Source of the DNA: an uncultured Actinomycetes bacterium
GTDB lineage: Bacteria > Actinomycetota > UBA4738 > HRBIN12
Reading direction: 5' to 3'
DNA: 64,000 bases
Assembly: GCA_963704885.1 (NCBI GenBank)
Contig: CAVPIB010000007.1
Span: 160,001-224,000 of the forward strand
Every line of letters starts with the position of its first letter. The stretch's first letter is position 1. A program made the translations under genes and the position numbers. The notes under the pieces were generated by a model. The model worked only from the letters and a program-made list of their open reading frames with translations. It was not told where the DNA came from and did not search any database. Below are positions 34,532 through 38,564 of this stretch, piece after piece.

Positions 34532-34822
34532 TTCACCGCGTGGAGCGTGAGCAGCACGAACCCCTCCTCGAACGTTGCCGGCACGGTCGTCGCTCCGGCG
34601 ATCGCCTCGGACATCGTCACCGACACCACGACCCGACCGCAAGCCATCTTCGGTCGGAGGTCTGGCGCCAGCAACTCGGGCGCTTGATCGGGGGGTGCTC
34701 CGACGCCCCTGCAGGGGAGTAGAACCCCAAGCACCCAGCGTCGAACGTCTCGTGATGGCCCCGGTGGCTGAGGTCCGGTCCTAGCCGTTCAGCTCCCGCC
34801 CTGGGTGAATGCGCCCTATAGG

Positions 34823-35416
34823 ATGTGGTCGTTGTCCGCCTATCTCGCGCTCTTCGCATCCTCGATCGGACCCGTGTCGCTGTTCCTGGCGTTGCTAGCC
34901 GTGCTCGCGCAGGTGAGCGTGCTCGTCGCCGTCGTGTTATGGGTGGCGGCGAGGTTCTCGGACGGTGCGGCCCGAACCAAGGCACGTCTCCTGGGCGCGA
35001 TCGGTCCATCGGCATCGTGGCTCGCCTGGGGGGTGGCACTCGTTTGCACCCTTGGCAGCCTCTACTACTCCGAGGTTGCCCACTTCGTTCCGTGCAAGCT
35101 CTGTTGGTACCAGCGGATCGCTATGTATCCGCTGGTGGTGGTGCTTGGCGTGGCGGCATGGCGCCAGCGAACCGAGATCGCTCGTGCCACCTTGCCTCTC
35201 GTCGCCATCGGCGCGGCGATCTCGACCTACCACTACCTGCTGGAGCGGTTCCCTTCGTTGGAGAGCGCTGCCAGTTGTGACCCCTCCGCGCCATGCACGG
35301 TGGTGTGGGTGTGGCGGTTCCACTACCTGTCGATCCCGGCCATGGCCCTGAGCGGCTTCGCGTTGATCGCCGTCCTCATCCTCATCGCGACCGACCCCGA
35401 CCCCGGAACGGAGTGA
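34823..35416 (+). CDS. dsbB: Disulfide bond formation protein B (BdbC/DsbB family)
   Basis: GSLYYSE...[14 protein letters not shown] and second Cys pair SCDPSAPC. Confidence 0.9.
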
Positions 35417-36075
35417 CCACGATGCCGTCAGCCAGCAAACGTCGAGCGATGGAGCGGGAGCACCGGCGACGTCAGATGCGCACCGTCGGTATCGCGGTGG
35501 CGGCTGTCGCCGCGGTCGCGATCGCGGCGATCGTGGTGAGCGCGCTCGGGGGTGAGGAGTCAACCGACCCCCGGGTCAGTCAGACAAGGCCCGTCACCGT
35601 AGCGGGCGAGCCGCTCCCGGCCTTCGGCGCGGAGCCAGATCCCGCCGTCGGGATGGCGGCGCCGGGCCTCGAAGGAGAGACGTTCGACGGTTCGCCGATC
35701 TCGATCACGCCAGGCCAGGGGCCGATGGCGATCTGGTTCGTGGCGCACTGGTGTCCGCACTGCCAAGCCGAGGTGCCCCGTATCGTCGCGCTCGCGGAAC
35801 AGGGCAAGCTCCCTGACGGTGTCCAGATCGCCGCGGTGTCCACGGGCGAAGATCCCGCCGGGCCCAACTACCCCCCGTCGGCCTGGCTCGAGGTCGAAGG
35901 GTGGCCCTTCCCCGTGCTGGCCGACGACGAGAACGGCACGGCCGCCACCGCATACGGGTTGGGGGGGTTCCCGTTCCTCGTACTGGTCGATGCCGACGGG
36001 AACGTCACGGCTCGCGCCTCAGGCGAATTGGGGGACGATGGCATCGTCGCCGCCCTGAACAGCCTGGCGGGCTAG
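35413..36075 (+). CDS. Membrane-anchored thioredoxin-fold oxidoreductase (CPHC, DsbA-like motif on a TlpA scaffold)
   Basis: N-terminal TM; WFVAHWCPHCQAEVP; cis-Pro loop GFP; GTGA overlap with dsbB. Confidence 0.88.
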   Translation: MTTMPSASKRRAMEREHRRRQMRTVGIAVAAVAAVAIAAIVVSALGGEESTDPRVSQTRPVTVAGEPLPAFGAEPDPAVGMAAPGLEGETFDGSPISITPGQGPMAIWFVAHWCPHCQAEVPRIVALAEQGKLPDGVQIAAVSTGEDPAGPNYPPSAWLEVEGWPFPVLADDENGTAATAYGLGGFPFLVLVDADGNVTARASGELGDDGIVAALNSLAG

Positions 36076-36125
36076 ACCGGATGACGCAGCCTTCAGGCGT
36101 CGTCGGTGTGTGTGGGGAAGCTTGC

Positions 36126-36151
36126 GGAATAGACCCGGGCTTTCCGGTGTC
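36126..36151 (+). promoter_or_regulatory. ECF-type promoter GGAATA-N16-TGTC
   Basis: Ends 9 nt before GTG 36161; variant of the local GGAATC-N16-CGTC motif. Confidence 0.55.
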
Positions 36152-36160
36152 CACACTGTT

Positions 36161-36733
36161 GTGAAGTCACCGCGGGCCTTCGCTGGCCTATCCTTGCTCG
36201 TCGGAGCCTTGGCCATGCTCGCGGCCGCGTGCTCGTCAGCGGCCGCTCCTATCGCCGATACGCCTTCGGCCACGAGAAGCACGCCGTCTCCTAGCGTAGC
36301 GGCCTCCGTCGCAGGTCCCGCCACGGTCCCCGAGGTGCTGGACTTCGAGGCTCCCGCTCTGGCCGGCGGGACCCTGAAGGGAGCCGACTACTCGGGCAAG
36401 GACCTCGCCATATGGTTCTGGGCGCCGTGGTGAACGACTTGTCAGGGGGAAGCCCCTGAAGTCGCGCGGGTCTCGCGCGCCTACGCAGGTCAGGTCGAGT
36501 TCCTCGGCATGGCGGGACGCGACTCGACCGACGCCATGCAGAGGTTCGTCGACAACTTCTCCCTGACGTTCCCGCAGGCTGTTTCCGAAGACGGCTCCTT
36601 ATGGGCGCGCTTCGGTGTCCCTTACCAGCCTGCCTGGGTCTTCGTGAACGACGACGGCCACGCTCAGGTCGTCTCCGGTGCGATCCCCGAGGACGATCTG
36701 AAGAAGATCCTCGATCAGCTGATCGCGGCTTAG
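36161..36733 (+). CDS. Selenocysteine-containing TlpA/redoxin lipoprotein (UxxC); TGA 36431-36433 read as Sec
   Basis: Lipobox LAAAC; IWFWAPW-TGA-TTCQGEAPEV continues in frame into ORF 36509-36733 (FGVPYQPAWVFVN); hairpin directly 3' of the TGA. Confidence 0.88.
36435..36464 (+). promoter_or_regulatory. Bacterial SECIS-like hairpin
   Basis: CGACT-(TG bulge)-TCAGGGG-[GAAG loop]-CCCCTGA-AGTCG, starting at the second base after the TGA. Confidence 0.8.
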
Positions 36734-36737
36734 CGTC

Positions 36738-37100
36738 CTACTCGGTCGACCCTCGGAACTCCAGGGCATAGGTCCACCGGGCTGGGTCTTCTGCGTGCTC
36801 GAAGCGCAGGAGCCTGCCCTCCTCGCCGCCGGGCAGGACGACGGGCAGTCCGACGTGCTCGTCCGTCGGCCACAACTCCTGCCTGACATCGTCCTCCAGC
36901 ACCAGGAGGGTCATCGGGTGTTCTCCATCTCGTTCGAGAGGTGGGTGCCAATCGTCGTCCTCGAGCCGCCGGACCCGGACGAAGCGGGGTACCGCGTGCA
37001 GGAGCACCGGCTCACCGGGAGACTTCCAGGCCTTACCGAAGAATCGCCAGCGCTCCCCATCCTTGGACGTCTCGATCACCCAACATTCCTCCGCACCCAT
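36738..37100 (-). CDS. Hypothetical protein, last gene of the tlpA-ccdA operon
   Basis: GGAGG RBS; Trp-rich 120 aa ORF directly after ccdA. Confidence 0.6.
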   Translation of the reverse strand: MGAEECWVIETSKDGERWRFFGKAWKSPGEPVLLHAVPRFVRVRRLEDDDWHPPLERDGEHPMTLLVLEDDVRQELWPTDEHVGLPVVLPGGEEGRLLRFEHAEDPARWTYALEFRGSTE

Positions 37101-37120
37101 GGGCCGCGGTCCTCCCTTCA

Positions 37121-37873
37121 TCACAGCGGGGGCTCGAAGTTGTTGACCAACCGAAGCACCGGCCCCATGACCTGGGTCCATAGACCAGAGATGAGCAACA
37201 CGCCGATCGAGACCATGATGACACCCGATACCAAGGAGATCGCCTCGTGGTGCCGCTTGAGTACGTCGAGGGCTCCCATCAGCCGGCCGACGCCCAGGCC
37301 GAGCAGGATGAACGGCAAGCCGAGGCCCATCGAGTACACGAACAGCAGCAACGATCCCCTTGCAGAGTTGCCCTGAACCGTGGCGAGCGCCAGCGTTCCG
37401 GCCAGGACCGGACCGATGCAAGGGGTCCATCCCGCGGCGAAGGCCATCCCCAAGGGATAGGCCGATGCGCGACCCGGGCGTAGCTTGGTCAGGAAGGGGC
37501 GCCTATCCGCATACAGCGCCGCCGTTCCGGCTCGGAGTCCCTGCAGGATCAAGATCATCCCGACGCCCGCCACCACGACTCCCGCGATCCGCTGCCCCGT
37601 CTGCGACCGAACGATGGGCACGAGCGTTCCCGCGAACGCACCCAGCGCGGTGAACACGGTGGCGAACCCCGCCACGAAGAACAGCATGGGTGCGATGTCG
37701 GGTCGCGTCGTCACACCGCTCGTTCCACCTACCGCCGCACGCGCTTGCGTGCCGGAGACGAACGAGAGATAGCCGGGCACGAGCGGCAACACGCATGGTG
37801 AGGCGAAAGAGACCACGCCCGCTGCGAACGCTATGAGTGGCGCCCACCAAGCCGTGAGATCGAAGACCGACAT
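37121..37873 (-). CDS. ccdA: Cytochrome c biogenesis / thiol-disulfide transporter CcdA
   Basis: AGVVSFASPCVLPLVPGYL and FAAGWTPCIGPVL; six TM segments. Confidence 0.93.
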   Translation of the reverse strand: MSVFDLTAWWAPLIAFAAGVVSFASPCVLPLVPGYLSFVSGTQARAAVGGTSGVTTRPDIAPMLFFVAGFATVFTALGAFAGTLVPIVRSQTGQRIAGVVVAGVGMILILQGLRAGTAALYADRRPFLTKLRPGRASAYPLGMAFAAGWTPCIGPVLAGTLALATVQGNSARGSLLLFVYSMGLGLPFILLGLGVGRLMGALDVLKRHHEAISLVSGVIMVSIGVLLISGLWTQVMGPVLRLVNNFEPPL

Positions 37874-37876
37874 CGG

Positions 37877-38500
37877 TCAGGCTGTGACGCCGAGATCGGT
37901 TTCGATCAGCTGCTCCAGGGACGCGGCGTCCAACCCACCGACCCAGACCTCGGCGATCTCCCCTCCGGGACGGATGAAGATCGTGGTCGGCATCCCCACC
38001 CCACCTGAGGCATTGAAGAAGACCCCGCTGCGGTCGATCGCTGTCGGATAGGTGATCCCGGTCTCCTTGGCGAGCGCGATGCTGGCGCTCGCGGCATCGC
38101 TCTGTGAGATCCCAAGGAAGGCGACCTGGTCACCAAGCTTCTTATGTACCTGCTCGAAGTCCGGCATCTCACCGATGCAGTTGGGGCACCACGACGCGAA
38201 GAAGTTGATAACGAGCGGCTTGTCGGCCAGCGTCGAGTACTCGACCGTGCCGCCCCCTTCGAGCGCCGGCAACTCCAAACTCTCCAGGGTCCCGCCGGTC
38301 CGGATATCCCCCGCGTAGGCGACTCCGCCGGCGCCGTTGCGGATCAGGAGGAAACCGATCCCCACGACGGCGATCAAGACCACGGCTGCGATACCCGCCG
38401 AGCGCAGTCGGGCCTTGTGACGGGCGTGCTTCGCTCGCCTCTCACGAGCTGCTCGCGCCTGTACATTCCTCTCGCCTTTGCTCGCGGCGCGCTCAGCCAC
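37877..38500 (-). CDS. TlpA/ResA-like membrane-anchored disulfide reductase
   Basis: PLVINFFASWCPNCIGEMP, GMPTTIFI; AGGAGG RBS before GTG 38500. Confidence 0.9.
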   Translation of the reverse strand: MAERAASKGERNVQARAARERRAKHARHKARLRSAGIAAVVLIAVVGIGFLLIRNGAGGVAYAGDIRTGGTLESLELPALEGGGTVEYSTLADKPLVINFFASWCPNCIGEMPDFEQVHKKLGDQVAFLGISQSDAASASIALAKETGITYPTAIDRSGVFFNASGGVGMPTTIFIRPGGEIAEVWVGGLDAASLEQLIETDLGVTA

Positions 38501-38564
38501 CCGTCCTCCTGTCGGTCGGGGTTTCCTCGCATGGCCGCGGTCACCCCGCGGCCTCAGCATGTCC

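Follow-up and report, generated by a model that had tools for sequence, protein, structure and literature searches.

Selenoproteins with a thioredoxin (Trx) fold and a UxxC redox motif, in which U denotes selenocysteine (Sec), have been described before, and the accessible parts of the literature list among them a 'thiol:disulfide interchange protein' and peroxiredoxin-like (Prx-like) proteins with UxxC or UxxU (PMC1794560; tabulated in PMC13188914). Exported and lipoprotein selenoproteins have been proposed for the SAO system in the available portion of a preprint (bioRxiv 10.1101/2022.07.06.499078), and certain known selenoprotein genes deviate from the consensus model of the bacterial selenocysteine insertion sequence (bSECIS), as far as the accessible text of PMC9312934 states. 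Formate dehydrogenase (FDH) is given as the only selenoprotein of mycobacteria in the available part of PMC13449736, and the M. tuberculosis (Mt) proteins DsbE and DsbF are presented in the accessible text of PMC3853704 as exported oxidants capable of folding hirudin, for which DsbD/CcdA-like partner proteins are proposed. We analysed a stretch of 64,000 nucleotides from an uncultured Actinomycetes bacterium (assembly GCA_963704885.1, contig CAVPIB010000007.1, positions 160,001 to 224,000), here called the window, to which all plain positions refer; its source genome (G000) comprises 3.0 Mb in 20 contigs, with 97% completeness and 4.5% contamination. We found that the gene at 36161-36733 is very probably a real selenoprotein gene. 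Judged by sequence comparison, it very probably encodes one lipid-anchored extracytoplasmic Trx-fold oxidoreductase of the DsbE/DsbF (TlpA/ResA-like) type, with Sec in the place of the nucleophilic Cys of CxxC.

A redoxin reading frame with an internal TGA

Under translation table 11, the region yields two open reading frames (ORFs), 36110-36433 and 36509-36733, which lie in the same frame. When TGA is translated as U, they merge into one plus-strand read-through of 207 residues (36110-36733), whose sole break is the TGA at 36431-36433 and whose context at the break reads WFWAPW-U-TTC-QGEAP. The Pfam domains AhpC-TSA, Redoxin and Thioredoxin all score above their cut-offs and span the TGA (residues 76-188 of the read-through), and an earlier note, made from the sequence alone, had rightly described an ORF that ends on the first Cys of a thioredoxin motif and continues in frame beyond it. 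Among solved structures, the best match is M. tuberculosis DsbF (3IOS, E = 2.5e-34, residues 71-201 of the read-through against 14-144 of the 150-residue chain), followed by DsbE/MPT53 (1LU4, E = 1.8e-27), with ResA, TlpA and CycY far behind both. In both leading alignments U falls on the first Cys, that of CPTC in Mt-DsbF and of CPFC in MPT53, and the Gln-Pro loop is aligned too; from what we know of the fold, we take the Pro of YQPAW to be the cis-Pro. Scores against curated NCBIfam models stay below the cut-offs for ResA (NF002854, 59.7 vs 170), TlpA (NF047696, 27.8 vs 230), WAxxUGC ResA-like proteins (NF041054, 24.9 vs 300) and DsbE (TIGR00385, 24.8 vs 123), and the PF13098 match of 23.2 is likewise under its cut-off of 27.

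The most sensible start is the GTG at 36161; it yields a product of 190 residues with an MKSPR n-region, and 190 residues is also the size of the anchored selenoprotein that the earlier note had predicted. The lipobox LAAAC announced there is present as well, with its Cys codon at 36230-36232, and a lipobox-like signal, by a pattern rule of our own, occurs in 34 of 35 orthologue loci, the exception being a locus whose upstream frame is interrupted. The tether that follows differs among orthologues in both length and sequence. A scan of 35950-36850 for promoters and terminators found none.

In public records the gene appears in pieces. The 74-residue product of 36509-36730 is recorded as a separate protein (NCBI, ENA), which means that annotation pipelines do split the gene, as had been anticipated. 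The N-terminal pieces, for which two start codons were tried, have no protein record, and the protein collection (E <= 1e-20, lengths of 113-363 residues) contains no near-full-length Sec form, with 11 Cys forms at up to 50% identity. The two annotated table-11 ORFs and the record of the downstream 74-residue piece are what one would also expect of a pseudogene, in which a nonsense mutation split a redoxin and the TGA is a true stop, with fragments being made at most. We consider this explanation extremely improbable, as 51 genomes of 16 genera retain the TGA, its flanks have diverged to 45-65% identity yet stay open, sequence conservation persists on its 3' side, it lies exactly on the catalytic Cys codon (on both Cys codons in three genomes), and the genome carries the Sec machinery.

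Conservation of the TGA and the selenocysteine machinery

We searched 294 genomes of the class at E <= 1e-27 and obtained 53 matching rows from 51 genomes (four of them unpublished: G142, G242, G078, G082) and 16 genera. An in-frame TGA is present in 52 of the 53 rows, 49 of which have one and three of which have two, and the lone row without it is a contig-cut fragment that starts past the site. In a set of 61 related genomes, the six nearest orthologues (46-68% identity) each have one TGA at the same codon, and at the level of individual loci the TGA was found at this codon in all 41 that were read (35 plus six more). The orthologue matches cross the TGA at 45-65% identity, with the frame open on both sides and conservation continuing downstream. 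Cys occupies the site in 12 more distant homologues (CxxC; CTTC in 11 of them). The more distant homologues with Cys, mostly in the form WFWAPW-CTTC, belong to other Acidimicrobiia, Iamiaceae, Pseudonocardiales, Mycobacterium and Mycobacteriales metagenome-assembled genomes, Nocardioides and Actinoplanes. At 36431-36433, the public contigs from three runs of three studies all agree with the TGA; one variant contig has four nearby differences, all at unpaired positions of the first RNA hairpin described below. A maximum-likelihood tree was built from 33 Sec forms and 23 Cys forms, four of whose rows are from unpublished genomes. It unites 21 of the 23 Cys forms in a single well-supported clade, and the Sec forms are spread over groups of 28, 4 and 1; Sec may have arisen once in these redoxins.

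The three rows with two TGA codons belong to three genomes of one genus and have TGA at both redox positions (UxxU, as W-U-S-T-U-R or W-U-H-T-U-Q); a fourth genome of that genus (G152, locus L120) has UxxC. Decay cannot explain the UxxU forms, because the TGA stands at both redox positions, and we predict from their sequences that these orthologues are diselenide-forming lipoproteins. At an orthologue of the window's own genus (L024, on G004:C4), SSGSHKRCLKTARSGS replaces the conserved I/LGFPQAVxEDGSLW at about residues 150-170, after which the conserved frame resumes; this has the appearance of two frameshifts that cancel each other or of a mistake in the assembly. In the same region, a public contig (run X1) has a one-base insertion after 36564 and a one-base deletion at 36567.

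The genome has a complete set of Sec genes, as the earlier note had implied. A tRNA-Sec was detected (70.9 bits with Rfam; ARAGORN type SeC, anticodon tca) together with SelB (321 bits), SelA (493 bits) and SelD (373 bits), and each score exceeds its curated cut-off. SelD occurs in two copies with identical scores on the small contigs C14 and C20. Identical peptide windows, noticed in the TGA scans, recur across contigs C1/C6/C14, C12/C13 and C11/C16/C18. The SelD pair and the repeated windows suggest that parts of the assembly (contamination 4.5%) are duplicated. The three findings that the earlier note had named as fatal to it, namely a genome lacking Sec machinery, TGC or TGT in the reads, and close homologues that never keep the TGA and hairpin, were all looked for, and none of them overturned the selenoprotein reading.

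A second selenoprotein gene of the genome, that of the Sec-containing FDH alpha subunit FdhA, serves as an internal reference. It is itself terminated by TGA, which shows that this codon also works as a normal stop in the genome. Its selenocysteine insertion sequence (SECIS), counted from the U of the UGA, has a 6-bp stem (16-21 paired with 27-32) and a GGUCU loop at 22-26; in all six genomes read, this loop is invariant and the changes in the stem are compensatory. Of 61 related genomes, 59 have SelA and, by this distribution, Sec is generally used in this order. For the same reason, nothing can be learned from whether the Sec trait and the TGA form occur together, since those 59 relatives have SelA regardless. 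Five genomes of family f8 (G064, G065, G071, G074, G075; 73-89% complete) yielded no FdhA at E <= 1e-60. These five do carry the Sec redoxin. If FdhA is truly missing in that family, the redoxin may be among the proteins that keep the Sec trait there. Scans of the source genome for further selenoproteins, based on an in-frame TGA with either third-position G+C content or a codon-usage score, were unspecific (904, 5 and 149 candidates). With a hairpin filter, 20 candidates were left, of which FdhA and the redoxin are the only convincing ones, and this is not an exhaustive selenoproteome. One candidate from the TGA and hairpin scan, C1:812445, was rejected as it looked non-coding.

RNA hairpins downstream of the TGA

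Two hairpins follow the TGA, and we call them hairpin 1 and hairpin 2 (Table 1). Positions within them are counted from the U of the UGA, and the first 60 nucleotides (nt) align without gaps in 33 distinct orthologue sequences, 30 of which are public. The minimum free energy (MFE) fold of 36425-36500 is identical to the structure that the earlier note had drawn, with stems of 5 and 7 bp, a UG bulge and a GAAG loop, and this structure is the extended form of hairpin 1. Hairpin 2 pairs 32-37 with 43-48 in the alignment and 33-38 with 44-49 in the window's own sequence. Across the 30 public sequences, 93.3% of the cells of both hairpins are paired (91.7% for hairpin 1 and 95% for hairpin 2), compared with 29-59% after a shift of the 3' partner by 1-3 columns. 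Covariation scores 0.143 vs 0.055 in shuffles, with none of 500 shuffles reaching the observed value, and the set of 33 sequences gives the same picture of pairing and covariation. The core stem of hairpin 1 is preserved among the orthologues through compensatory changes. Pairs changed on both sides are 14-27 (AU in 21, GC in 5) and 17-24 (GC in 23, CG in 5, AU in 1, GU in 1) in hairpin 1, and 36-44 (GC in 28, UA in 2) in hairpin 2. The lower stem of the extended form is kept in about 21-22 of the 30 sequences, and four of its five pairs have no compensatory change. A distant Sec form of another family, at 31% identity, keeps both hairpins by means of different base pairs.

We also compared 13 orthologues with 1000 synonymous recodings each, the codons being drawn from the usage of the source genome. 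The window's hairpin 1 core is more stable than 999 of its 1000 recodings (p = 0.001), and hairpin 1 reaches p <= 0.035 in 10 of the 13 sequences (range 0.001-0.25); it is on this comparison and on the compensatory changes in orthologues, not on a shuffle z-score, that the significance of hairpin 1 rests. For hairpin 2, p <= 0.023 is reached in 6 of 13 sequences (range 0.000-0.25). Both hairpins are largely lost where Cys replaces Sec: of six pairs, hairpin 1 keeps 2.75 on average in 12 Cys forms vs 5.3 in Sec forms, and hairpin 2 keeps 2.08 vs 5.67 (Mann-Whitney, p = 1e-5 and 3e-8, respectively, for groups that are phylogenetically non-independent). Some of the Cys forms that have lost pairs encode the same peptide (CQGEAP, CRGEAP). 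The hairpin 2 loop has 5 nt in all orthologues and follows N-G-(G/U)-U-N, with G39 and U41 invariant. The two genome strands, 6.03 Mnt in total, contain 26 hairpins that combine a GGUCU loop with a stem of 6 bp or more, and only in FdhA and the redoxin gene does such a hairpin follow an in-frame TGA with coding signal on both sides.

Several observations weigh against the gene and its signal being as we describe them. No Shine-Dalgarno sequence is visible upstream of the GTG at 36161, and no RNA run is listed as covering the stretch. The DsbB-like, WCPHC redoxin, DUF7712 and CcdA genes that flank the gene in this genome stand beside none of the orthologues in 33 loci (flanks of about 1.5 kb). 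Double-sided changes occur in just 3 of 12 pairs, and the covariation is both inflated by shared ancestry and constrained by coding; pair-count measures are weaker and were reached by 43 and 54 of 500 shuffles. G+C-rich coding sequence readily folds, and against dinucleotide shuffles the MFE fold of 36425-36500 has a z-score of -1.72, with 13 of 200 shuffles folding as well. Recoding of the window's own sequence gives no significant result for hairpin 2 (p = 0.116), and hairpin 1 is weak in 3 of the 13 sequences (p = 0.11-0.25). The hairpin 1 loop is not conserved in sequence, and the distance of hairpin 2 from the UGA exceeds that of the FdhA SECIS by 17 nt, spacing being critical in the E. 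coli SECIS. An Rfam scan of 36380-36540 at E <= 10 returned three chance small-RNA matches and no SECIS family.

The TGA might also be read through without selenium, with Cys or Trp inserted by a near-cognate tRNA or by Cys-tRNASec, so that the mature protein would be mostly CxxC or WxxC. Near-cognate decoding of UGA and the loading of tRNASec with Cys are known from other bacteria. Set against the conserved, dedicated RNA structure after the codon, whose loop is common with that of the FdhA SECIS, such read-through is very unlikely; moreover, TGC or TGT is one mutation away and is used by 0 of the 52 TGA-bearing matches, and SelA is present in 59 of 61 related genomes.

The earlier note had taken the hairpin next to the TGA to be the SECIS. 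That hairpin is indeed conserved and specific to TGA forms, and it may nevertheless be hairpin 2, with its FdhA-type loop, that binds SelB instead. By a small margin we prefer the view that SelB contacts hairpin 2; hairpin 1 would then be a conserved helix with a spacing or auxiliary role, remaining folded at the mRNA entrance. This preference comes from the loop, which equals that of the FdhA SECIS, from the invariant G39 and U41, from the geometry of the UxxU forms, and from the single-stranded path between the UGA and hairpin 2, which with hairpin 1 folded is 12-13 nt vs 12 nt in FdhA. The competing assignment, which we rate as somewhat improbable, makes hairpin 1 alone (36443-36458 plus the lower stem) the SECIS, with hairpin 2 being accessory or fortuitous in G+C-rich Ala, Arg and Val codons. 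A canonical fdhF-type bSECIS has a conserved GU in an apical loop about 20-25 nt from the U of the UGA, the limits used by bSECISearch, and both the loop GU and the spacing from the UGA are important in the E. coli and Moorella elements; the FdhA SECIS of the source genome conforms to this geometry. In these terms hairpin 1 has the distance, its loop beginning at 19, near the 22 of the FdhA SECIS; it also has the strongest recoding signal (p = 0.001 on its own), two pairs changed on both sides, and G as the first loop base in 23 of 30 public rows. However, its loop varies (GAAG, GCGG, GCCG, ACCG, UCCG, CACCGC, AAGC) and is without the GU that never changes in the loops of hairpin 2 and FdhA; the redoxin thus has a variable loop without GU at the fdhF-type distance and its GU-loop hairpin at 39-43. 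Moreover, 4 of 33 sequences form hairpin 1 in a shifted register only, and hairpin 2 is no less specific to TGA forms. In the UxxU forms hairpin 1 starts right after the second TGA and, from ribosome geometry, would be unable to stay folded while that codon is decoded.

Returning to hairpin 2 as the SelB contact, we tentatively propose a bipartite signal, an idea we hold with less than even confidence. Hairpin 1 would act as a spacer that holds hairpin 2, with its GGUCU or N-G-(G/U)-U-N loop 17 nt beyond the FdhA spacing, at the ribosome, and a single distal element could then serve two UGA codons 9 nt apart, giving rise to a diselenide-forming UxxU envelope lipoprotein in some Acidimicrobiia. 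If so, the SECIS spacing rules derived from E. coli fdhF would not be general, and SECIS-based gene finders would miss such genes. The FdhA-type loop on the distal hairpin offers a testable case for the maximum distance between a bacterial SECIS and its UGA.

Genomic surroundings, possible function and known systems

Table 1. Coordinates of the predicted selenoprotein gene, its parts, its neighbours and the compared loci. Plain positions are those of the window; others are given as genome:contig:positions.
Feature	Position	Strand	Details
Predicted selenoprotein gene, whole	36161..36733	+	190 codons + TAG stop; Sec = codon 91
Lipoprotein signal peptide	36161..36232	+	MKSPR n-region, hydrophobic core, lipobox LAAAC; read from sequence
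Predicted lipidated Cys24	36230-36232	+	Cys of LAAAC
Ala/Pro/Ser/Thr-rich tether, lipid anchor to fold	36233..36379	+	from composition; boundaries approximate
Redox motif U-T-T-C (U91-T-T-C94)	36431..36442	+	TGA 36431-36433 = predicted Sec; TGT 36440-36442 = resolving Cys
Gln-Pro of presumed cis-Pro loop (YQPAW)	36626..36631	+	aligned with QQPAY of Mt-DsbF and WQPAF of MPT53
Hairpin 1 core	36443..36458	+	6 bp, GAAG loop, positions 13-28 (13-18 with 23-28)
Hairpin 1, extended MFE form	36435-36464	+	adds U-A pair (36442 with 36459) and 5-bp lower stem
Hairpin 2	36463..36479	+	6 bp, GGUCU loop at 39-43; candidate SelB-binding loop
DsbB-like membrane protein	34805-35416	+	Pfam DsbB, E = 2.5e-12
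Cys-type redoxin, WCPHC	within 35293-36075	+	Pfam AhpC-TSA, E = 1.8e-13
DUF7712 gene	within 36738-37430	-	Pfam
CcdA/DsbD-type membrane electron transporter	37121..37873	-	Pfam DsbD_TM, E = 8.4e-12
Third redoxin paralogue, WCPNC, upstream of CcdA	37877..38560	-	Pfam AhpC-TSA, E = 2e-16
Sec-containing FdhA	G000:C4:58831-60771		SCNRT-U-HAPSV, TGA at C4:59077; FdhD-like ORF precedes
UxxU locus L117	G168:C7:1479000-1480200		both hairpins kept
UxxU locus L118	G167:C16:39800-40900		both hairpins kept
UxxU locus L119	G170:C2:407200-408300		both hairpins kept

In the window, 34805-38560 forms a cluster of envelope thiol-disulfide genes around the Sec redoxin. The 24 neighbouring ORFs from eight orthologue loci belong to unrelated families. 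As the neighbours are not conserved, they provide no operon argument and the choice of a redox partner is a guess; CcdA is a possible partner in this genome only, and the Sec redoxin gene looks, from its varied surroundings, like a stand-alone unit. In G004, a CMD/AhpD-like gene adjoins the Sec redoxin (L024:2241-2678; Pfam PF02627, E = 3.2e-8). The CMD/AhpD-like family also has Sec members.

As to how the protein would be made and act, the structured RNA immediately 3' of the UGA would recruit SelB-GTP-Sec-tRNASec, and Sec would be inserted during translation. The precursor would be exported unfolded, and Lgt and LspA, for which the genome has matches (two for Lgt), would lipidate it and cleave it at Cys24. 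The Trx domain would then sit outside the membrane on a flexible tether of about 45 residues, where its selenolate/selenenylsulfide pair could undergo exchange with disulfides (or sulfenates) on envelope proteins at a higher rate than a thiol. Catalysis could run in either of two directions, as a reductant recycled via the adjacent CcdA or as an oxidant in the manner of Mt-DsbE and Mt-DsbF in vitro. A reductase or repair role is favoured by a narrow margin, since Sec is typical of nucleophilic, reductive sites.

The selenoprotein would add a conserved, unannotated member to the proteins of abundant uncultured sediment and soil Actinomycetota (51 of the 294 genomes searched), in which the gene is presently split or dropped at the TGA. 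As a Sec version of the DsbE/DsbF of the mycobacterial envelope, it would also provide a natural Sec/Cys/UxxU series in which the benefit of selenium to an extracytoplasmic thiol-disulfide catalyst could be studied. UxxC redoxin selenoproteins and exported or lipoprotein selenoproteins are kinds already known; what is new here, as read from the sequences, is an Acidimicrobiia-wide Sec branch of DsbE/DsbF-type redoxins, an unusual two-hairpin SECIS region, and the UxxU variant. No literature linking selenocysteine with DsbE or DsbF was found among the matches listed, and supplementary selenoprotein tables may hold an entry.

When the redoxin is set beside the known systems, different likenesses emerge. 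The 'thiol:disulfide interchange protein' family (Zhang et al. 2006, PF13098) resembles it by the UxxC motif and the general fold only. The TlpA/ResA/Prx-like UxxC selenoproteins, as far as the accessible sources describe them, have in common with it the Trx fold, Sec at the first redox position and a UxxU variant; the 'thiol:disulfide interchange' selenoproteins listed there come from three deltaproteobacteria (Syntrophus and two Geobacter), whereas the redoxin branch is actinobacterial and DsbF-like. The SAO-system selenoproteins, in the available part of their description, are similarly extracytoplasmic, with signal or lipoprotein signal peptides, and are split or truncated at the TGA in databases, but they have other folds (ABC substrate-binding and others), CU motifs, a Firmicutes distribution and a proposed organometal chemistry. 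At the RNA level, the FdhA SECIS of the same genome and hairpin 2 both have a 6-bp G+C-rich stem and an identical GGUCU loop 3' of an in-frame UGA; the loop lies at 22-26 in FdhA vs 39-43 in the redoxin, with hairpin 1 (13-28) in between. The closest protein likeness is to Mt-DsbF (Rv1677, 3IOS), presumably a lipoprotein as well, with WFWAPW-C-P-T-C-QGEAP where the redoxin has WFWAPW-U-T-T-C-QGEAP. Mt-DsbF and MPT53 (Rv2878c, 1LU4) are, like the redoxin, extracytoplasmic single Trx domains with the same Gln-Pro loop, and they differ from it in having Cys instead of the predicted Sec at the first redox position and in belonging to Mycobacteriales instead of Acidimicrobiia, at an identity that is only moderate.

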